Shown one piece after another: positions 48,812 through 57,346 of a DNA stretch of 64,000 nt. The position numbers and the translations under genes were made by a program. Source of the DNA: a phage; the sequence record PZ452596.1. One strand, given 5' to 3'. The notes beneath the pieces are model-generated. The model made no database searches and was not told where the DNA came from. It saw only the letters and a list, made by a program, of their open reading frames with translations. Each line of letters opens with the position of its first letter. Positions within the stretch are counted from its first letter, which is position 1.

Positions 48812-49027
48812 TTACCCCAATTTAACCATACAATCGCCGTATTTCCACTTAGAAATAGACTTTTCACCATTAGAATAATAAACTTCGAGTTTAGCACGAT
48901 TATTTTTAATTTGAATAACCTTTGCTGTCATCAAAGTTCCATACCCATAATAAACTGCAACTTCATCACCTACATATACCGCGCTTCCGCGGTAATCGTG
49001 AATATAGTCAGTTCCTTCGAGCATCAT
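48812..49027 (-). CDS. hypothetical protein, 71 aa
   Basis: ATGA overlap with nrdC stop. Confidence 0.55.
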   Translation of the reverse strand: MMLEGTDYIHDYRGSAVYVGDEVAVYYGYGTLMTAKVIQIKNNRAKLEVYYSNGEKSISKWKYGDCMVKLG

Positions 49028-49287
49028 TTAAAATATTCTCGCAGTTGGTCAAATCCACCAATATGACTTCCATCAGGAGCAAATACCTGGGGCATTGTCA
49101 AGCCGATTTGAGTATCACGACCTAGTTTAGTCAGAAGCTCAGCGATTTTCTCATCATCAAAAACACCTTTTTCCGGCATAATGTTGATAAATTCAAACGG
49201 CTGTTTCTTCACGGTCAAAAGACGTTTTGCATTATCGCAATACACACATTTATGGATGTTGCTATCATAACCATATACTTTAAACAT
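49024..49287 (-). CDS. nrdC: thioredoxin/glutaredoxin NrdC, 87 aa
   Basis: MFKVYGYDSNIHKCVYCDNAKRLLTVKKQPFEFINIMPEKG...; CVYC redox motif. Confidence 0.9.
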   Translation of the reverse strand: MFKVYGYDSNIHKCVYCDNAKRLLTVKKQPFEFINIMPEKGVFDDEKIAELLTKLGRDTQIGLTMPQVFAPDGSHIGGFDQLREYFK

Positions 49288-49288
49288 A

Positions 49289-49531
49289 TTATTCCTTAAT
49301 TCCTAGTACTTGTTTAAAAGTCTCGTCGTAATCAAGACTTTGGCCCGTTTGTTCTTTATGTTTGTATATAATATCACTTACTTCTGATAGCATATTTTTA
49401 TATGAACGAGTTAAAGCTGATTTAAGCACGCTGTATCTATCAGGAAATTTACCATGTTCATTATAATAAGCTATTGCTAATTCGCGGACTGCCTTTTCAG
49501 CAGTCTCCATATATTCTTTACGCTTTGTCAT
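49289..49531 (-). CDS. hypothetical protein ~81 aa
   Basis: Internal ATG at 49531; longer track ORF overlaps the zinc-ribbon gene. Confidence 0.45.
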
Positions 49532-49832
49532 TTTCTTCTTGGTCAAATCGGTGTTTACAATGGCGGCATTTATAACGAAGATTATTAGTCTGCCAATGGA
49601 CCAATTGCACCTGTTCAGTTCCACATTCAGGGCAATTAGGAACGTTTTTAGAAGCCCTTTCGCGACGTTCAACCATGACCATTACAGAATCCCAATTAAT
49701 AGGGCTGCTATAATCATCACAACCGTGAATCTTTCCACGCATTTCCAAATTGTCTTCTTCACCAGCCATAATAATTTTAATTAGACTAGAATTACTTGAA
49801 GCTGCAATGTCTTCTAATAGACGCTTTTTCAT
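49518..49832 (-). CDS. zinc-ribbon protein, 104 aa
   Basis: CPECG...CRHCKH motif; ATGA overlap with upstream gene. Confidence 0.55.
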
Positions 49833-50755
49833 TTCAATACCTCAATAGCATTACGTAAACCATTTGCTTTTGCATTAAGAGCTTTTAACAATTTGGTGTG
49901 TTCTGCAATTTGGGCTTCAACTTCAATCAAACGAGCATTGAGATATTCGCGTTCTTCTTTCATAGTATCATTCTCATGATTGGATTTTGGCGTAGGTTTA
50001 AATTCACTAGGGTCCTTTAATTTAATAACAAATTTAGTTTCAAACAGTGAAAGACCATAATTCGTATTATCATCAAAGGATTTGACTACATCCATATCAG
50101 ATAATAACACGTGTAAATTATAAGCCAAAGAACTAATAGTTTTATTGTGTTTATTAGCTTCGCGTGGTTTCATATACGGAAGATTTTTATATATCTCATG
50201 CGGAGCGCAAACGATAATTGACAATTCAAATTGTCCATTCTGGGACGATGGAGTGAATTTAGCCGTAACCCAGTCTTTTACATTCACATTAATAGTACGG
50301 TTATCACCATGACAAAACAGTCTACGAGAATGCTTAAAAAGCATATTCACATTATTATTAAATTCGTGTGAAAACTCACTGGCAAATTTTTCTTTACTAT
50401 TTTTAGAAAACCATTCTTCTAAATAAGTTCTTTTCACGTCATTAATAATATTAAATGTAACAACACTAGCATTTGATACATTAGTCTCAATGTAGCTTGG
50501 ATACATAAATTTTTTAACATTATTAACAGCTATCACAGAAGATAGTAATCGGGAACGTTTGAACCACTCGAGCAAAGAACCAAGAGAATGTGAATACGCA
50601 TTTTGTGTATCTTTACAAATATGGTTTTCCCATCCAATATAGTCTAAAAAATCACGAAGAATATTATTGATTACTGCTCTGTGTCCTATCTGATAATTAC
50701 GATATTTAGTAATAAGACTGTCAAAATAATCAATATAATGTTTACGAGTTTTCAT
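49829..50755 (-). CDS. hypothetical protein 308 aa; paralog family member with C-terminal coiled coil
   Basis: MKTRKHYIDYF...; C-terminus ...[41 protein letters not shown]. Confidence 0.6.
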   Translation of the reverse strand: MKTRKHYIDYFDSLITKYRNYQIGHRAVINNILRDFLDYIGWENHICKDTQNAYSHSLGSLLEWFKRSRLLSSVIAVNNVKKFMYPSYIETNVSNASVVTFNIINDVKRTYLEEWFSKNSKEKFASEFSHEFNNNVNMLFKHSRRLFCHGDNRTINVNVKDWVTAKFTPSSQNGQFELSIIVCAPHEIYKNLPYMKPREANKHNKTISSLAYNLHVLLSDMDVVKSFDDNTNYGLSLFETKFVIKLKDPSEFKPTPKSNHENDTMKEEREYLNARLIEVEAQIAEHTKLLKALNAKANGLRNAIEVLK

Positions 50756-50807
50756 GTTCTTCTCACTTGGTTAATGATTTATACTCCGAGCCATCCTTGG
50801 CTTTAAA

Positions 50808-51809
50808 TTACTTAATTAACTGTAAAGCTTGTTCCAGACGATCAAGACGATTAACAGATTCTTCCCAAATCTTTTTAGCCTGCTCATATTCTTTCTGCGC
50901 TTTATTAGAAATTTCTAGAACTTCTTTATAAGCTTTTTCTAGTGCAATAACTTCTGGACGAATTTCTATCGGTTCAGGTGAATCGTCAAGACATTCCATT
51001 AGTTCCTCAAGGGTAGTTTCTTCTTTAGGAGTATTCACAATTTCATCACATTTTTGTTGATAAATTTCTTTATCAGTAGGTGAGTACGCGCACTTTACTT
51101 CACGAAGACTAATTACAATTTTATATCCTTCCCAGCCGCATATATTCTTAAAAGGATATGTATGAATATTTTCTACTGTTTCCATACAAAGTAATGCGGT
51201 CTCTAATTGACGAGTTATAGTGCTAGCAATTGAGAAAAATTTATTAATGTTCTTTTGGTTAGTTTCTGGTGTAAAAAATCCATAATTCACAAAAATAGCT
51301 GCTTTATTTTTATCAAGTTCATATTCTTTTATGATAATCATATCAGAAGCCCAAGGATGAATTTGACGATAATCGCCATAGCATAATTTAGAAGCTGATT
51401 TTAAAATTTGCTTTTTGAAAAGTCTGAAATTACTGATCCAACGACGAGTAAAAATATTCTCAGGGTCTTCTTTATTATTAAGATGATAAGAATTAACATC
51501 ACCGAACCAATTATATCCTACTACATCTTTAGTTCGTTTAATTTCTTTCCCAAAATTACCAAGAATATCCCGATTAACCAAATATGAAAGAAGACGAGAC
51601 TCTTTAAAGGTTTTCTTGATAACATCTTTATCTACACGGCTAGAAATTTTATGAATTTCATGAATAAATTTAGTAGAAGAAACAATACTTGCATCAACAC
51701 TATTGAGCCATTGATTGATAATAGAAAGAACGACATTTTGACCAAACATCGGTATAGCTTTATCATCAATAACGCTATTGAATGATTTGATATATTCGTT
51801 ACGAGTCAT
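50808..51809 (-). CDS. hypothetical protein 333 aa; paralog family member with C-terminal coiled coil
   Basis: Internal ATG at 51809 with ACTGAGGAGATTAAT RBS and own early promoter; RRWISNFRLFKKQILKSASKL matches EWRFIALFRKQLKQILSTASRL in next gene. Confidence 0.6.
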   Translation of the reverse strand: MTRNEYIKSFNSVIDDKAIPMFGQNVVLSIINQWLNSVDASIVSSTKFIHEIHKISSRVDKDVIKKTFKESRLLSYLVNRDILGNFGKEIKRTKDVVGYNWFGDVNSYHLNNKEDPENIFTRRWISNFRLFKKQILKSASKLCYGDYRQIHPWASDMIIIKEYELDKNKAAIFVNYGFFTPETNQKNINKFFSIASTITRQLETALLCMETVENIHTYPFKNICGWEGYKIVISLREVKCAYSPTDKEIYQQKCDEIVNTPKEETTLEELMECLDDSPEPIEIRPEVIALEKAYKEVLEISNKAQKEYEQAKKIWEESVNRLDRLEQALQLIK

Positions 51810-51837
51810 ATTAATCTCCTCAGTAGAAAGTAAGAAC

Positions 51838-51867
51838 ATTATACCACATCCTTGTGGCAAAGTAAAC
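51838..51867 (-). promoter_or_regulatory. T4-type early promoter upstream of 333-aa paralog gene
   Basis: GTTTACtttgccacaaggatgtggTATAAT. Confidence 0.55.
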
Positions 51868-52886
51868 TAGTTCAGTGCATTTAGTGCATTGTTCAGTTTA
51901 GAACGTTGCTTTGTCAGATTTTGAACCCTTGACTGAGCTTGTTCTAACGCCTTTTCAGCTTCTAGCACTTCATTGGTCGCTTTAATGAGTTCATCATCTA
52001 CTGCCTTAAGAGACTTCTCAATCGCGTCAGCGTGCCATTTTTCTACAGGTTTAAAATTTGAATTTTCAGTAGGAAGAAAACTCACTTTATTAAGTTTACA
52101 TGCATCTATATTGCTTGAGCTATACATCCAAAATTTAGGATCGTTTGATAAGTAATTGGATAAATTTAAGTTATCTTGCACTTCCTGCTTTTTCTCTTGC
52201 GGGACTTCGTCCTTTCTCAAAAAATCGTATTTAAATGAAACGATCATATCAAGTTCATATGATGTTGTATCTAACTTAAATCGTTCAAAACGAGGTAAAA
52301 TCTTAGATTGAACAGCAGCAACAACATCCATATACTTAAATGCTTCTGTCAACTGTGATTTAAGGCATTCACAAATTGAAAGAGAATTTTTTGTATTAGG
52401 TTTAAAGCTAATTCGTGCAGTTCTATTATTTTCTTTTAATGGTCTTACTTCCATTTGAAGAGTATAACAATCAAATTTCAGATTCTTTAAGTTAATATCA
52501 GAACCTTTTAATCGACTAGCCGTCGACAAAATTTGCTTCAATTGTTTACGGAATAGAGCAATAAATCTCCATTCAATACGATAATGATTTGGATTAAAAA
52601 ATCCAGATGATAAATCGACCTTACTCTGACCAACGCCTTGAACAAATAGAGGATTTTTATAATCAATAGTTTTACAGAAATCGGTGAGCTGCTCACGAGC
52701 AGTCATTTGTGTAATATACCCCGCTTTACTAAAATGACGTAACAATTCACTGCTATTTAGATATTTAAAGTGAATAGCACGATTAACTTTATCAGGGTCT
52801 AAATTATTTTCACACAAAAATGTCATAACATTACGAGTATCGCTGGCAGTACGAACCATATCTTCAATTTGAGAACGAGTTTTCAT
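51867..52886 (-). CDS. hypothetical protein 339 aa; paralog family member with C-terminal coiled coil
   Basis: MKTRSQIEDMVRT...; AAGGAACACC RBS. Confidence 0.6.
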   Translation of the reverse strand: MKTRSQIEDMVRTASDTRNVMTFLCENNLDPDKVNRAIHFKYLNSSELLRHFSKAGYITQMTAREQLTDFCKTIDYKNPLFVQGVGQSKVDLSSGFFNPNHYRIEWRFIALFRKQLKQILSTASRLKGSDINLKNLKFDCYTLQMEVRPLKENNRTARISFKPNTKNSLSICECLKSQLTEAFKYMDVVAAVQSKILPRFERFKLDTTSYELDMIVSFKYDFLRKDEVPQEKKQEVQDNLNLSNYLSNDPKFWMYSSSNIDACKLNKVSFLPTENSNFKPVEKWHADAIEKSLKAVDDELIKATNEVLEAEKALEQAQSRVQNLTKQRSKLNNALNALN

Positions 52887-52894
52887 GGTGTTCC

Positions 52895-53782
52895 TTAAGA
52901 TTTAAGTAAATCAACAATTTTAATTAACTTTTCACGCTCAGATTTAGCTTTACTACTCAATCCGGATAGTCTAAAGATTTCATCGTCATATTGTTGAATA
53001 GAAATATTCAGCTCTTCAATTTGCTTATTAAAATAATCAATTTGCTCAGAATGTTTTTCGTTACTACGAACTGGTACAGGTTTTGTAGGCAATTTAGTTG
53101 AACTGGATTCATTCGGGCGATAAATTAAAATGCAATTTGAACCAATCGGGCATTTAGCACCAGATGAATATTCTAATGTTCCGGCTTCTTTTAAAACTTC
53201 AAAAGCTAAACAGAGATGATACCCCATATTAACATAATCTGTAGAGTGAGCTCTGATATAATAATCATCGCCGCGAATACTAAATTTAAAGCATTTAAGG
53301 TCTTCTGTATTATTGGTCTTAAAAATCATTTGTTTATCTAGACCTTTAGCTAATCGAGCGCCTAATGCTAATAATCGTCGTTGATTTTCCCACAAATCCG
53401 CAATCATTTGGTCAAATGATAATTTTGGCATTAGTCGACCATAAAGGTCATATCCTTTATTATAATTACGAAGGATTTCACTCGCATTAATACGAGACAA
53501 CGCTCCAATTTTATTAAGGGCTTTCATGATGCGATTAGATAAACCCATTCCAGACCCGTTTGTTCGTTGTAAATGTTTATCTAATCCAAACCCAATATCA
53601 ACTTTAAATTTATCTAAAATTTCAGCATGAACATCTCTGTCAATAACATTCAAATCCAAAGTTGGGTTAAATCTATGAAAAAATTTATCTGGCTCTCCAC
53701 GACGAAGTACAGTCCATTCATTCAATTTTTTATTAACTAAAGATTTAATTACTGCATTGACATTATTAATTACTACTGACAT
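52895..53782 (-). CDS. hypothetical protein 295 aa; possible distant family member, C-terminal coiled coil
   Basis: First ATG at 53782 with GAGTGAGAAAAAT RBS (track start is TTG). Confidence 0.55.
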   Translation of the reverse strand: MSVVINNVNAVIKSLVNKKLNEWTVLRRGEPDKFFHRFNPTLDLNVIDRDVHAEILDKFKVDIGFGLDKHLQRTNGSGMGLSNRIMKALNKIGALSRINASEILRNYNKGYDLYGRLMPKLSFDQMIADLWENQRRLLALGARLAKGLDKQMIFKTNNTEDLKCFKFSIRGDDYYIRAHSTDYVNMGYHLCLAFEVLKEAGTLEYSSGAKCPIGSNCILIYRPNESSSTKLPTKPVPVRSNEKHSEQIDYFNKQIEELNISIQQYDDEIFRLSGLSSKAKSEREKLIKIVDLLKS

Positions 53783-53911
53783 ATTTTTCTCACTCAATTT
53801 TCAATTTTACTAAATACACAGAATATGATTGAAAAGACTATATAAGCACCGCACACAGATTGAACTAATACCATTCCAAAGAACCAAATAATATTATCAA
53901 ACAGTGTCTGT

Positions 53912-53932
53912 TTTACGTCGAAAGGACGTAAA
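53912..53932 (-). other. stem-loop (8-bp stem, 5-nt loop) between membrane ORF and 295-aa gene
   Basis: tttacgtc-gaaag-gacgtaaa. Confidence 0.4.
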
Positions 53933-53957
53933 CTTACAGTAATATTATCACCTTTTT

Positions 53958-54200
53958 CTATTGAAGAATACATCTCTGGTGAAATATATTCACTAAATCT
54001 ATAACCGTCTTTGAGTTCATATACAGAGCAATAAACGATAAACTAGACCCCTTTCCTTGAGTTCCTGTAAGGGTATTAACTACAGTAACATCATAATCTT
54101 TATAATGCATATAATCATTAATTGCGTAATAACCATATGCAACTACTACACATAAACAACATATCAATAAATTCAATCTTTTAATTATCAACTGTTTCAT
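53958..54200 (-). CDS. membrane protein, 80 aa
   Basis: N-terminal TM helix LLICCLCVVVAYGYYAI; MotA-type promoter upstream. Confidence 0.5.
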   Translation of the reverse strand: MKQLIIKRLNLLICCLCVVVAYGYYAINDYMHYKDYDVTVVNTLTGTQGKGSSLSFIALYMNSKTVIDLVNIFHQRCILQ

Positions 54201-54255: not shown

Positions 54256-54783
54256 TTATGCGAGTACCGTCTTTAACCGTTCTTCAAACTTCCGAAGAGT
54301 ATTCTGGCGTTCAGCTCTTTGCTTTTTGTAAGTTTCAATACGCTCTGAAATGAGAGTGTATCGTTCATTTACTGATTCTTTCATAAAATCAGGAATTTCA
54401 CGAGAAGCTTTAATCTCGTCAAATTTATCAATAACAGCTTGCTCTTCAGCAATTAAATTATCATACATCAAAATATCTTTCTTGATGAACTCAATATCTT
54501 CTTGAGTTACACGAGATAATTTAGATGCTTTATCCTTTTTGTACTGTTCGTTAGTATCACGAGACCAGTGTAATGTACGATTTTTATTCGTATTCTTATA
54601 AATTTCTACAATACCGATCTCGTCAATAATAACGATCCAATTCCAACAGGATTTGTAAATTTGTCCTCCATCAACTGTGATTTCACCACCAATTGAGACA
54701 TCATTAAAGAACTTGCTTTGAGCTTCAGATTTAAATTTACCATCGTTATAATTTACCAGGTTGAAAATATCTTTAGCGTTCAT
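54256..54783 (-). CDS. hypothetical protein 175 aa, C-terminal coiled coil
   Basis: ATG at 54783 with GGAGGAACAAAA leader from promoter cassette. Confidence 0.6.
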   Translation of the reverse strand: MNAKDIFNLVNYNDGKFKSEAQSKFFNDVSIGGEITVDGGQIYKSCWNWIVIIDEIGIVEIYKNTNKNRTLHWSRDTNEQYKKDKASKLSRVTQEDIEFIKKDILMYDNLIAEEQAVIDKFDEIKASREIPDFMKESVNERYTLISERIETYKKQRAERQNTLRKFEERLKTVLA

Positions 54784-54810: not shown

Positions 54811-54840
54811 ATAGTACCACAGAGGAACGGTCTTGTAAAC
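54811..54840 (-). promoter_or_regulatory. T4-type early promoter (repeated cassette)
   Basis: GTTTACaagaccgttcctctgtggTACTAT + caactatcaactgcGGAGGAAC. Confidence 0.55.
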
Positions 54841-55246: not shown

Positions 55247-56215
55247 TTATTTCAGAAGAGTAACCTCAGCGATTTCTTCCCAACCGTTTTTGTCGGTCAT
55301 AATAAAGTCAGCAAGATAAAGAGCAGTACGCAGTGAAACATTGCGTAAACGATTAACATTGACTTTCATCCATGATAATGCTTTATAAGTTTCTTCATCA
55401 GAAAGACCGCGCTTTTGCATCATGTCAGTTGAAAGAATAACATCTTCAACCCTGACCATAATTTCTTCATTAGTGTGAACACCCAAATCCAAATAAACCG
55501 AGCGGGACACTAATGCTTGTAAATGTGGAGCAAGTTTAGTACCACGGTCTAATTCGCGGTCAATGTCAACGTTTGTGATAAAAACAATCGTTCCTTTAAA
55601 TTCAAACTCACGCTCAATGCCTTTTTCTTCTAAGTAAGAAGATGCAGTGCTCCAGCAGACTTTACGGGTCTCTCCAGTGTCCAGAGCAGCTTTCAGAAGA
55701 TTAAGAATGTCCATATCAGAGAAAACATCCACATCGTCAATCAAAAGGACAGAATTCTCTTCACGATTATTCCAAAGCTGCTCATAAAGACCAATACCAG
55801 AGATTTTACCATTAATACTTTTATATTCAATGTATCCAACATCATTTGCTTTATTTAAAGCTTTATCTAAAGAATATGTTTTACCTATACCTGCCGCACC
55901 AGAGATAATTAATGAACGAATGTTTCCGTTAATAATACCATTCGTCATCATTCCCATAACATTAAATCTTTTATTAATGCGGGTTTTCATATCTTCATAT
56001 GATTCTTTAACTTCTTCAACTTTTACACCATCATATGAAATGTCTGATTTGTAAACCCAAACACCGCGACGTTTACCGTCAATTTCAACAAAAACTTTAC
56101 CATCTCCTTGTGCATCTACCGGAGCATTATCCGGGAACCATTCGCCTAAGAGCTCAAAAGTTCCAGAGATTTCTTTACCGAAGTAGATACCCTTATTGAT
56201 AGTTACAGTTTTCAT
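55247..56215 (-). CDS. AAA+ family ATPase with N-terminal beta-rich domain, 322 aa
   Basis: Internal ATG at 56215 with TTTGGAGAATAAA leader; Walker A GAAGIGKTY, Walker B VLLIDDVD, sensor-1 IVFITN. Confidence 0.65.
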   Translation of the reverse strand: MKTVTINKGIYFGKEISGTFELLGEWFPDNAPVDAQGDGKVFVEIDGKRRGVWVYKSDISYDGVKVEEVKESYEDMKTRINKRFNVMGMMTNGIINGNIRSLIISGAAGIGKTYSLDKALNKANDVGYIEYKSINGKISGIGLYEQLWNNREENSVLLIDDVDVFSDMDILNLLKAALDTGETRKVCWSTASSYLEEKGIEREFEFKGTIVFITNVDIDRELDRGTKLAPHLQALVSRSVYLDLGVHTNEEIMVRVEDVILSTDMMQKRGLSDEETYKALSWMKVNVNRLRNVSLRTALYLADFIMTDKNGWEEIAEVTLLK

Positions 56216-56282: not shown

Positions 56283-56312
56283 AACTTTGTGAAAAATTTT
56301 TGAAATAAAAAA

Positions 56313-56330
56313 GGGAGCCCGAAGGCTCCC
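56313..56330 (-). terminator. intrinsic terminator after NTase gene (UUCG loop, U-run)
   Basis: gggagcc-cgaa-ggctccc followed by UUUUUUAUUU on minus strand, then an early promoter. Confidence 0.65.
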
Positions 56331-56332
56331 TA

Positions 56333-57346
56333 TCATTTATAATAACTTCGATGGTTTTCAAGATAGACCTTCTCAAGGAAGTCATCCCAGAAACTCATGT
56401 CTACTTTTTGCTGCATACCGTTCTTAGAAGCTTCAGTAGATGCTGCTTCTACTTGATCGACCACATCTTCCAAAAACTCTTGAACTGTTTTAAATGGATG
56501 CTTACCCAACTTCACGTCGAGAATAAATGGAGCGTCTTGAAGTGGATAAACCAAGTCGCCAGTTTTGTAAATTTCCAATAGTTGAAGTCCACCACGACAG
56601 GCATGGCTCAGAGCTTTCCAGTCAATGCCTTCGTTGGCTTCGGCCTTACGAGCGCGTTCACCATATTCAGCATCTAATTTGTTCAGTGACTGCTTAAGCT
56701 CAATAAGAGAAAGAGTTGTCTGATATTTACGACCCAACACAGTGTAGAACGTTTGTGGGCCTGTTTTCTCATGATTATGGAACACCCATTCACAGAATTC
56801 GTTTTCTGGAAGACGATGCTTAATATCTTCAACTTTAGTGCGACGCTGCTTAATAGAACCATCTTCTTGGTAATCAACCCATTGCTCAGGGATTTGATTA
56901 ACTACTTTCAATACATCGCGTAATGCAGCCAAACGAGAACCCTTGACACCGTATTTAGAAGCTTGCTTGCGAACATATCCTAAATAGGATTTCATGTTAG
57001 TCGTATAAAAACGAGAACGGTTGTCTTGAATAAACTTCCACACATCAGGCAAATCAGATTTAACCACTAGTTCAGGTGGAGTGTGAAGCATATCCAATGC
57101 TACAGTTTCACCATCTGCTGCTAATTTAAAGAAATATTTAAGACTGTATAGTTCATGGTCAATATCATCTTTAGTGTTTTTAGATGATGTGTTGTTAGTG
57201 TTTTTACTCATATGCTCTTTAACATTTCCGATAAGAATATCGCGAGCAGGAGGAACAAAAATTTCTTTAAAATCTACATCAGATTCTGGGGTAGAAGTTC
57301 CATAAAGATGACTACCAAAATAGCTTTTCATTACTGTTTTCATCAT
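56333..57346 (-). CDS. predicted nucleotidyltransferase (Pol-beta-like NTase fold) with ~250-aa helical C-terminal region, 337 aa
   Basis: N-terminal YFGSHLYGTSTPESDVDF (GS...DxD) then ...DGETVALDML; ATGA overlap with upstream membrane gene; hairpin plus U-run terminator downstream. Confidence 0.6.
   Translation of the reverse strand: MMKTVMKSYFGSHLYGTSTPESDVDFKEIFVPPARDILIGNVKEHMSKNTNNTSSKNTKDDIDHELYSLKYFFKLAADGETVALDMLHTPPELVVKSDLPDVWKFIQDNRSRFYTTNMKSYLGYVRKQASKYGVKGSRLAALRDVLKVVNQIPEQWVDYQEDGSIKQRRTKVEDIKHRLPENEFCEWVFHNHEKTGPQTFYTVLGRKYQTTLSLIELKQSLNKLDAEYGERARKAEANEGIDWKALSHACRGGLQLLEIYKTGDLVYPLQDAPFILDVKLGKHPFKTVQEFLEDVVDQVEAASTEASKNGMQQKVDMSFWDDFLEKVYLENHRSYYK

Follow-up and report, generated by a model that had tools for sequence, protein, structure and literature searches.

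A tandem array of four nrdC-linked genes in a T4-like phage, including the ortholog of the anti-Dsr1 gene nrdC.5, as a probable superfamily with C-terminal coiled coils

Closest described systems and the nrdC.3-nrdC.6 locus

Phage T4 NrdC.5 has been described as a factor acting against Dsr1, a defence of Escherichia coli that consists of a SIR2 NADase with a tetratricopeptide repeat (TPR) sensor. In the work of Srikant et al. (eLife 2022, PMC9391042), an evolved T4 clone that carried large deletions failed to plate on ECOR17, deletion of dsr1 in the host restored plating, and plasmid-expressed T4 nrdC.5 restored plating of the deletion phage on E. coli carrying the ECOR17 Dsr1; the authors call nrdC.5 an early gene. 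Here we analysed a 64,000-nucleotide stretch of phage DNA (sequence record PZ452596.1; hereafter the window, to which all positions refer), in which the ortholog of nrdC.5 lies in a tandem array of four genes, nrdC.3 to nrdC.6. The orthology follows from 92.9% identity to T4 NrdC.5 over the full length and from the same place between nrdC.6 and nrdC.4, together with a full-length match to the Pfam family DUF7235 (PF23882; E = 3.7e-114, 381.7 bits against a cut-off of 30, profile positions 1-307 of 307). About 7% of the residues differ, and the anti-Dsr1 activity was established for the T4 version. We conclude that nrdC.5 is probably an inhibitor of the Dsr1 defence, as has been shown genetically for the 93%-identical T4 ortholog. 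The reading of the whole array that we favour, and that we consider slightly more probable than improbable, is that of an old set of tandem paralogs built on one plan, which are early accessory genes directed against host immunity.

Two other systems come close to this locus. DSAD1 of an SPbeta-type phage inhibits the sirtuin defence DSR2 (PMC10973363, PMC11087589), for which direct binding has been shown. The likeness to NrdC.5 is an analogy only: the defence that the phage protein disables is in both cases a SIR2 NADase with a sensor for a late structural protein. DSAD1 differs in its target, DSR2 instead of Dsr1, and belongs to another phage lineage, and we do not claim homology. The second system is the T4 dmd-tifA-adfA "anti-TA (toxin-antitoxin) island" (PMC9391042), which like the array consists of clustered, non-essential early accessory genes that are matched to host defences and lost or amplified in adaptation. 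In contrast to the nrdC.3-nrdC.6 cluster, which consists of paralogs of one design of about 300 amino acids, the genes of this island are small and mutually unrelated. Our literature searches for NrdC.5, DUF7235 or anti-Dsr1, including other names, returned no follow-up beyond the 2022 eLife paper, and NrdC.5 is absent from the text of one anti-defence catalogue preprint. For nrdC.3, nrdC.4 and nrdC.6 the literature searches gave nothing beyond a genome announcement.

The four open reading frames (ORFs) predicted by the first-pass annotation are present on the minus strand, and their starts fit the alignments of homologs:

nrdC.3: 49829-50755, minus strand; ORF of 308 amino acids, paralog of nrdC.4; the RB27 allele is of the T4/T2 type
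nrdC.4: 50808-51809, minus strand; ORF of 333 amino acids; reference member with a predicted structure
nrdC.5: 51867-52886, minus strand; ORF of 339 amino acids; ortholog of the T4 anti-Dsr1 protein, Pfam DUF7235
nrdC.6: 52895-53782, minus strand; ORF of 295 amino acids with a predicted architecture like that of nrdC.4; sequence similarity at the profile level only

The gene names were taken from annotated relatives (RB32 and T4 records). The array is part of the early region from nrdC to tk. With respect to transcription, nrdC.2, nrdC.1 and the thioredoxin gene nrdC follow it downstream, and nrdC.7 to nrdC.11 precede it upstream. A 3,969-bp stretch of the locus is 100% identical to Enterobacteria phage RB27 (KM607000) and 95-96% identical to hundreds of Tequatrovirus genomes, with at least 80% of it covered in 462 of the 507 matching records. 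Compared to the T4 proteins, the RB27 proteins are 90% (NrdC.3), 98% (NrdC.4), 93% (NrdC.5) and 98% (NrdC.6) identical. The alignments support the start MTRNEYI for nrdC.4, preceded by GAGGAG, and MS.(V/A)IN for nrdC.6, which is separated from nrdC.5 by 8 nucleotides. In some annotations nrdC.4 is given 343 amino acids, starting at an ATG within the -10 box of the promoter described below.

In the databases the four proteins fall into three families that are treated as unrelated. PF26897/phrog_1435, to which Pfam assigns no function, includes nrdC.3 (phrog_1435, E = 9e-100) and nrdC.4 (phrog_1435, E = 3e-168; its homologs carry PF26897). PF26899/phrog_2257, likewise without an assigned function, contains nrdC.6 (phrog_2257, E = 7.5e-153; PF26899 on all 105 homologs). 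The third is DUF7235 with nrdC.5 (phrog_2351, E = 1e-163), and in the Pfam scan the PF23882 profile had no match in nrdC.3, nrdC.4 or nrdC.6. According to the analysis below, the three families apparently branch from a single superfamily, whose members have a core and a C-terminal coil in common. The genes and the link between NrdC.5 and Dsr1 were already known; uniting the three families in one superfamily appears to be new.

Searches of the proteins against PDB sequences, NCBIfam and Pfam yielded no informative domain. PDB matches to designed helical repeats and to caspase-3 were rejected as compositional or chance. Many GenBank and UniProt records call the homologs of nrdC.3 to nrdC.11 "thioredoxin", and these proteins all lack both a thioredoxin domain and a CxxC motif. 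The label apparently spread because of the gene-name prefix "nrdC.x"; the true thioredoxin, nrdC, is an ORF of 87 amino acids at 49024-49287. The idea that nrdC.3 to nrdC.6 are thioredoxin-like redox proteins, which these records favour, has next to no probability in our view, as Pfam and NCBIfam gave no thioredoxin or glutaredoxin match, the CxxC motif occurs in none of the four sequences and the predicted fold differs from the thioredoxin fold.

Relationship among the four proteins

Family alignments were made from database homologs and 22 syntenic loci of T4-like phages, and the profiles were compared by hhalign. Profile comparisons were used because pairwise BLAST is too insensitive here: blastp gave a marginal match between nrdC.3 and nrdC.4 (23% identity over 275 residues, E = 3e-4) and nothing significant for any other pair. 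By hhalign, nrdC.3 and nrdC.4 match with 99% probability and E = 2e-18, and at the sequence level these two are paralogs. nrdC.4 and nrdC.5 match with 88% and E = 2.8e-6 over residues 62-218 and 46-195, respectively, and still with 80% and E = 1.3e-5 when the coiled coil is left out, so that nrdC.5 is probably a remote homolog of nrdC.4 within the same superfamily. The remaining comparisons are weaker, with 41% and E = 2.9e-4 for nrdC.4 and nrdC.6, 7% and E = 5e-3 for nrdC.5 and nrdC.6, and 6.5% for nrdC.3 and nrdC.5. Unrelated proteins treated by the same procedure gave E values of 0.1-0.8. The pairwise and profile alignments that the first-pass annotation had proposed as a check show similarity beyond chance for nrdC.4 against nrdC.3 and nrdC.5 (E = 2e-18 and 2.8e-6); for nrdC.6 no pairwise match of sequences is significant.

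The alignments of nrdC.4 with nrdC.5, of nrdC.4 with nrdC.6 and of nrdC.5 with nrdC.6 are mutually consistent in register, and they share one block:

Core block, nrdC.4 residues 62-151: 51357-51626, minus strand; helix 'SRLLSYLVNRDIL.NFGK', a small beta region and helix 'F+..KK.ILKSASKL..GD.R'

Its two helices are the two blocks that had been spotted in the first-pass annotation, and they are aligned in all three of the weaker pairs. The first of these blocks is real, reading ESRLLSYL in nrdC.4 and RSRLLSSV in nrdC.3. The second motif, found as FRKQLKQILSTASRL in nrdC.5 and FKKQILKSASKL in nrdC.4, additionally occurs in nrdC.6 as NQRRLLALGARLA, which had been missed, and the profile alignments place these in register. 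Both core helices are recognisable in nrdC.6, as LSRINASEILRNYNKG and NQRRLLALGARLAKGLDKQ. The same annotation had given an MKTR N-terminus to three genes; this is literally true of nrdC.3 and nrdC.5, but nrdC.4 starts with MTR. The identical N-termini of nrdC.3 and nrdC.5 result from a stretch of 19 nucleotides around their starts (50744-50762 and 52875-52893), 89% identical and reading GAA.A.CATGAAAACTCGT on the coding strand, within which ATGAAAACTCGT is identical in DNA. This is the sole similarity between paralogs at the DNA level. A repeat scan of the region detected no long repeats between them, and because such repeats are absent the duplications must be old.

An exhaustive hmmsearch with the nrdC.4 profile against 1.84 billion representative proteins returned seven clusters, including a nrdC.3-type protein (E = 3.7e-8). 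None of them was of the nrdC.5 type, of the nrdC.6 type or cellular; a host origin is therefore unsupported. In an iterated hidden Markov model (HMM) search of 530 ORFs from T4-like loci, the nrdC.5 profile drew in nrdC.3. The first link scored 14 bits, in the C-terminal third, and is suggestive only. nrdC.8, which also has a C-terminal coil, was considered as a fifth member and rejected at the sequence level (hhalign E > 0.1).

Predicted structures extend the comparison. The AlphaFold2 model of nrdC.4 (predicted local distance difference test [pLDDT] 78.9, predicted template modelling score [pTM] 0.63) has N-terminal helices, an alpha/beta core, a disordered linker (261-282) and a helix at 285-332. 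The model of nrdC.6 (pLDDT 76.3, pTM 0.65) ends in helices 242-271 and 277-294. The elements follow one another in the same way in both models. After the N-terminal helices come the two conserved helices with a small beta region between them, then a long helix with a beta hairpin on either side, then a linker of low confidence and lastly the terminal helix. The similar architecture that had been attributed to the fourth gene is thus borne out at the level of the models. In addition, the register found by hhalign from sequence superposes the equivalent helices of these two independent models. Foldseek searches of BFVD with the nrdC.4 model found an nrdC.3 model (E = 1.9e-8) and nrdC.6 of phage JS10 (E = 7.7e-6, probability 1.0, template modelling [TM] scores 0.40/0.46), and also uncharacterised proteins of about 300-370 amino acids with 10-15% identity from T4-like phages of Acinetobacter, Pectobacterium, Klebsiella, Enterobacter, Erwinia and Serratia. 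In the reciprocal search the nrdC.6 model shared five distant BFVD neighbours with the nrdC.4 model. These results suggest that nrdC.6 probably belongs to the superfamily and shares its fold with nrdC.4. The TM-scores were 0.40-0.49, which is low partly because the terminal helix is freely placed in the models.

Two sequences bridge the families. A Tegunavirus nrdC.6-type protein matches the nrdC.4 profile (67%, E = 5e-5, 123 columns), and a 335-residue protein of the Acinetobacter phage AbTZA1 matches the nrdC.5 profile (66%, E = 5.7e-5). The latter is 97.6% identical to a 335-residue protein of phage fHyAci03, which we take to be the fHyAci03 entry of equal length in BFVD that both the nrdC.4 and the nrdC.6 models match. 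Support for a putative core fold common to the four comes from models and Foldseek for nrdC.3, nrdC.4 and nrdC.6, and from profiles and bridges for nrdC.5.

Alternatively, only nrdC.3 and nrdC.4 could be true paralogs, with nrdC.5 and/or nrdC.6 unrelated to them. An amphipathic C-terminal helix would then have been gained independently, and the matches would reflect a common small alpha/beta topology. This would explain why BLAST is significant for nrdC.3 and nrdC.4 alone, why Pfam and PHROGs hold three separate families, why the exhaustive search missed nrdC.5 and nrdC.6, why the iterated link between nrdC.5 and nrdC.3 reached just 14 bits in the C-terminal third, and why the TM-scores stay under 0.5. 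Nevertheless, we think it rather improbable. The nrdC.4-nrdC.5 E value lies far from those of the controls, with or without the coil, and three alignments agree in register and superpose the helices of two independent models. Foldseek gives probability 1.0 for nrdC.4 and nrdC.6, with shared neighbours in the reciprocal search. There are bridging sequences, and the genes are adjacent and have a common layout of linker and coil. The claim of tandem diversified paralogs therefore holds in graded form: the paralogy of nrdC.3 and nrdC.4 is shown, that of nrdC.5 is probable, and that of nrdC.6 has the support of the predicted fold.

C-terminal coiled coils had been noted in all four proteins, and this was confirmed by the terminal helices in the AlphaFold models and by a simple home-made heptad score applied to the last 50 residues of the 67 minus-strand ORFs of at least 100 amino acids. 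The five best scores belong, in that order, to nrdC.5, nrdC.3, nrdC.6, nrdC.8 and nrdC.4, which form a contiguous block broken only by the small nrdC.7. All four array proteins have a terminal heptad helix of 45-50 residues, preceded by a low-pLDDT linker in the nrdC.4 and nrdC.6 models:

nrdC.3 coil, about residues 262-308: 49832-49972, minus strand; heptad rank 2 of 67
nrdC.4 coil helix, residues 285-333: 50811-50957, minus strand; single AlphaFold2 helix 285-332, last 20 or so residues nearly invariant among homologs; heptad rank 5
nrdC.5 coil, about residues 288-339: 51870-52025, minus strand; best heptad score of the 67 ORFs
nrdC.6 coil helices, residues 242-295: 52898-53059, minus strand; AlphaFold2 helices 242-271 and 277-294, heptad rank 3, DDEIF.L...K.ER...LLK nearly invariant

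The families of nrdC.3, nrdC.4 and nrdC.6 are more conserved in the coil than in the body. The nrdC.3 alleles are 85-91% identical in the coil and 56-57% in the body; the nrdC.4 family has 63-76% identity in the coil against 24-41% in the globular part (76% against 24% in the most distant homolog); and Mosigvirus nrdC.6 has 61% against 29%. Between paralogs the coils are less alike: ungapped comparison of the four, anchored at the C-terminus, gave z values of 1.0-3.3 against shuffles, and coil-only hhalign gave E values from 1e-3 to 0.15. These signals are too faint for a claim of homology between the coils of different paralogs beyond a common heptad pattern.

Evolution, expression and the possible anti-immune role

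Among seven Tequatroviruses the ratio of nonsynonymous to synonymous substitution rates (dN/dS) is 0.31 for nrdC.3, 0.18 for nrdC.4, 0.21 for nrdC.5 and 0.10 for nrdC.6. In the same genomes the neighbours nrdC, nrdC.1 and nrdC.8 to nrdC.11 have values of 0.03-0.06, so the paralogs are 2-7 times higher. Identity to the orthologs of Dhakavirus and Gaprivervirus is 21-27% for nrdC.5, 39-49% for nrdC.4 and 46-52% for nrdC.6, compared to 68-84% for the neighbours. Across 654 phage records nrdC.3 is trimodal, with 136 records at 90% identity or more, 352 at about 61% and 162, from Mosigvirus, at about 55%. The alleles diverge mainly in the central alpha/beta core, and the N-terminus and the coil stay similar. 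Copy number varies among T4-like genera, from four members in Tequatrovirus down to none detected, and this provides the comparison across genera that had been suggested in the first-pass annotation:

Tequatrovirus: four members, nrdC.3, nrdC.4, nrdC.5 and nrdC.6
Mosigvirus: three members, of the nrdC.3, nrdC.5 and nrdC.6 types
Dhakavirus and Gaprivervirus: three members, of the nrdC.4, nrdC.5 and nrdC.6 types
Tegunavirus: about two members
Gelderlandvirus, Jiaodavirus and Hadassahvirus: one member each
Slopekvirus and Pseudotevenvirus: no members detected in this interval

A restriction of nrdC.3 to Tequatrovirus was considered and rejected, as Mosigvirus has a nrdC.3-type gene without a nrdC.4-type gene. 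The pattern across genera indicates that nrdC.3 and nrdC.4 were duplicated before these genera arose and that copies were later lost differentially. The variable interval also encodes another conserved protein, of about 260 amino acids, in Gelderlandvirus (locus L017, 16418-17200), Jiaodavirus (L018, 17114-17932) and Tegunavirus (L019, 18927-19718); it is uncharacterised, has the C-terminus ...THAFYKRPS... and is unrelated to the nrdC.3-nrdC.6 profiles.

Natural variants lack parts of the array. In phage ACG-C40 (locus L023, 4302-4713) most of nrdC.5, the whole of nrdC.4 and most of nrdC.3 are lost, and a 72-residue fragment from the N-terminus of nrdC.5 remains, together with the end of nrdC.3 that encodes the coil. 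The protein P0120 is an out-of-register fusion of nrdC.5 (146-270) to nrdC.3 (135 to the end), with nrdC.4 deleted, and in an IMG/VR genome (locus L005, 6971-8003) nrdC.4 is split into two ORFs. The existence of natural deletions, a fusion and a split variant means that nrdC.3 to nrdC.5 are dispensable. nrdC.3 to nrdC.6 are non-essential early accessory genes, and the elevated rates, the nrdC.3 alleles, the differences in copy number and the natural deletions fit what would be expected of accessory genes in an arms race.

At least one gene had been credited with its own early promoter, and such a site is present upstream of nrdC.4:

Early-type promoter in the gap between nrdC.5 and nrdC.4: 51838-51866, minus strand; GTTTACT, 17 nucleotides, TG-extended TATAAT; 10 of 12 matches

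The T4 early-promoter consensus reportedly has GTTTAC at -35 and TATAAT at -10. Both hexamers are kept across Tequatrovirus, Gaprivervirus and Dhakavirus, with a different spacer sequence, so nrdC.4, at least, has what reads as its own conserved early-type promoter. Promoter-like sites in the region overall are at chance level, and an Rfam scan of the region found no RNA families. In the gap between nrdC.4 and nrdC.3 (50756-50807, minus strand), just after the short hairpin CCAAGGATGGCTCGG, there is GAGTATAAATC, a 7/8 match to the T4 late-promoter motif, TATAAATA. As a candidate site, it suggests that nrdC.3 may also be transcribed late.

The nearest solved folds of the alpha/beta cores are phage tail-terminator and tail-completion proteins (lambda gpU, SPP1 gp17-like and the gene transfer agent structure 6tba), with match scores below the usual level for homology. 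One could imagine a place for the four proteins in the virion or its morphogenesis, for instance in a tail-terminator-like or scaffold-like role; the nrdC.4 model has weak BFVD matches to the same class at ranks 42-48, and coiled coils are common in scaffolding proteins. But the nrdC-tk region that holds the genes is an early one, with a sigma-70-type early promoter, nrdC.5 is called early by Srikant et al. (PMC9391042), and genes of the array are deleted in viable natural phages and in evolved T4. Unlike gpU-like proteins, nrdC.3 to nrdC.6 have an extra N-terminal helical region and a coiled coil and are early, dispensable and outside structural modules; neither a strong structural match nor a structural-module context was found. 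We regard a virion role as very improbable, and both a structural role and the "thioredoxin" annotation are effectively excluded.

The counter-defence role proposed in the first-pass annotation stands for nrdC.5, through the T4 ortholog and Dsr1; for nrdC.3, nrdC.4 and nrdC.6 it is something we infer. The fact that nrdC.5 of T4 neutralises Dsr1 makes these three good candidates for undiscovered anti-immunity proteins. In the explanation that we favour, the common plan starts with an N-terminal helical region, which is followed by an alpha/beta core containing the two conserved helices and by a disordered linker, and ends in a coiled coil of about 45-50 residues. With its fast-evolving globular part, each paralog may bind its own host immune sensor, or its own variant of a common sensor, and the better-conserved coiled coil may oligomerise the protein, which would give it avidity for defence proteins that are themselves multimeric. 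According to a 2026 preprint (PMC12803255), what triggers the TPR sensor of E. coli Dsr1 is the major capsid protein of phage ZL19. Most likely NrdC.5 would bind Dsr1 directly and early, before the late capsid trigger appears, in parallel to the blocking of DSR2 by DSAD1.

Several points weigh against this explanation. The result with T4 nrdC.5 is complementation by expression and not binding (PMC9391042), and the capsid trigger of Dsr1 comes from a Drexlerviridae phage and not from T4. The experimental evidence is confined to nrdC.5, with nrdC.3, nrdC.4 and nrdC.6 outside it. Gene-wide dN/dS is below 1 for all four genes, and relaxed constraint is inseparable from diversifying selection. In the nrdC.5 family the coil is no better conserved than the body, with 22-28% identity each. 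Regarding the superfamily, the sequence evidence for nrdC.6 by itself is weak (41%), the Foldseek TM-scores fall below 0.5, and nrdC.5 is linked to the family by profile comparison (88%) and bridges, not by structure.

It is also conceivable that NrdC.5 overcomes Dsr1 indirectly and that the paralogs serve host takeover or regulation in general, acting via the coil on conserved machinery of host or phage. NrdC.5 might mask or chaperone the phage trigger, alter nicotinamide adenine dinucleotide (NAD+) metabolism or shift the timing of gene expression. The published experiment, which shows rescue only, would agree with this, and a coil that docks on a conserved partner would be expected to be the best-conserved part, as it is in the nrdC.3, nrdC.4 and nrdC.6 families. 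With dN/dS of 0.10, nrdC.6 is fairly constrained, and a family member has been kept beside nrdC in several distant genera. We nevertheless consider such a role unlikely, given that the Pfam, NCBIfam and PDB sequence searches found no enzymatic or nucleic-acid-binding domain, that the genes are lost in natural isolates and that the globular parts evolve several-fold faster than the neighbours, which would be unusual for proteins acting on conserved machinery.

A more elaborate form of the anti-immune explanation is that the array is a modular anti-immunity platform. The coils would assemble with themselves, with each other or with one conserved hub, and the interchangeable alpha/beta cores would serve as early decoys of conserved virion proteins, which would fill the sensors of defences based on pattern recognition, such as Dsr1 with its Avs7-type TPR sensor, ahead of the late structural proteins themselves. 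The nrdC.3 core alleles on a near-identical coil would then be swaps of decoy-specificity cassettes. We consider this a long shot.

Neighbouring genes and meaning for the T4-like phages

Several neighbours of the array have features of their own. nrdC.2 (49518-49832, minus strand, 104 amino acids) has a C-terminal zinc ribbon (CPECG...CRHCKH) and evolves as fast as the paralogs: its dN/dS is 0.24, and among Tequatroviruses it varies in length and is 57-94% identical. It, too, may take part in the arms race. The start codon of nrdC.2 and the end of nrdC.3 overlap by 4 nucleotides, which suggests translational coupling. nrdC.7 (53794-54200, minus strand) is split into ORFs of 80 and 59 amino acids by a frameshift near 54027, which is due to a 2-nucleotide insertion (TTGCTCTG compared to TTGCTG in relatives). 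In T4 and other relatives nrdC.7 is a small membrane protein of 134-135 amino acids, and the split in RB27 is either a pseudogene or a sequencing error in the record. nrdC.8 (54256-54783, minus strand, 175 amino acids) has a strong terminal heptad helix (rank 4 of 67) and a promoter-like site at 54811-54839. Its conservation is high (dN/dS 0.04; identity to distant genera 68%), and it could be a partner under constraint or a relative that has been truncated. Further upstream, nrdC.10 (55247-56209, minus strand) is a P-loop ATPase with weak AAA/STAND-NTPase Pfam matches, and nrdC.11 (56333-57346, minus strand) belongs to the nucleotidyltransferases of the RlaP "RNA repair pathway" family (E = 1.8e-11) and occurs in over 1,500 phage records, out to phages of Vibrio and Sinorhizobium. 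They form a conserved pair, with a strong GC hairpin and T-run, terminator-like, between them (56312-56331).

NrdC.5 is the only reported phage factor against the Dsr1 sirtuin defence. Within the array, the widespread misannotation as "thioredoxin" is corrected. If NrdC.5 is indeed one branch of a four-paralog superfamily of Straboviridae, nrdC.3, nrdC.4 and nrdC.6 become three immediate anti-defence candidates in the best-studied phage family. The superfamily would also offer a testable structural hypothesis, a variable core on a conserved oligomerising coil, and the allelic diversity of nrdC.3 and nrdC.5 would be a natural series with which to map the determinants of specificity.

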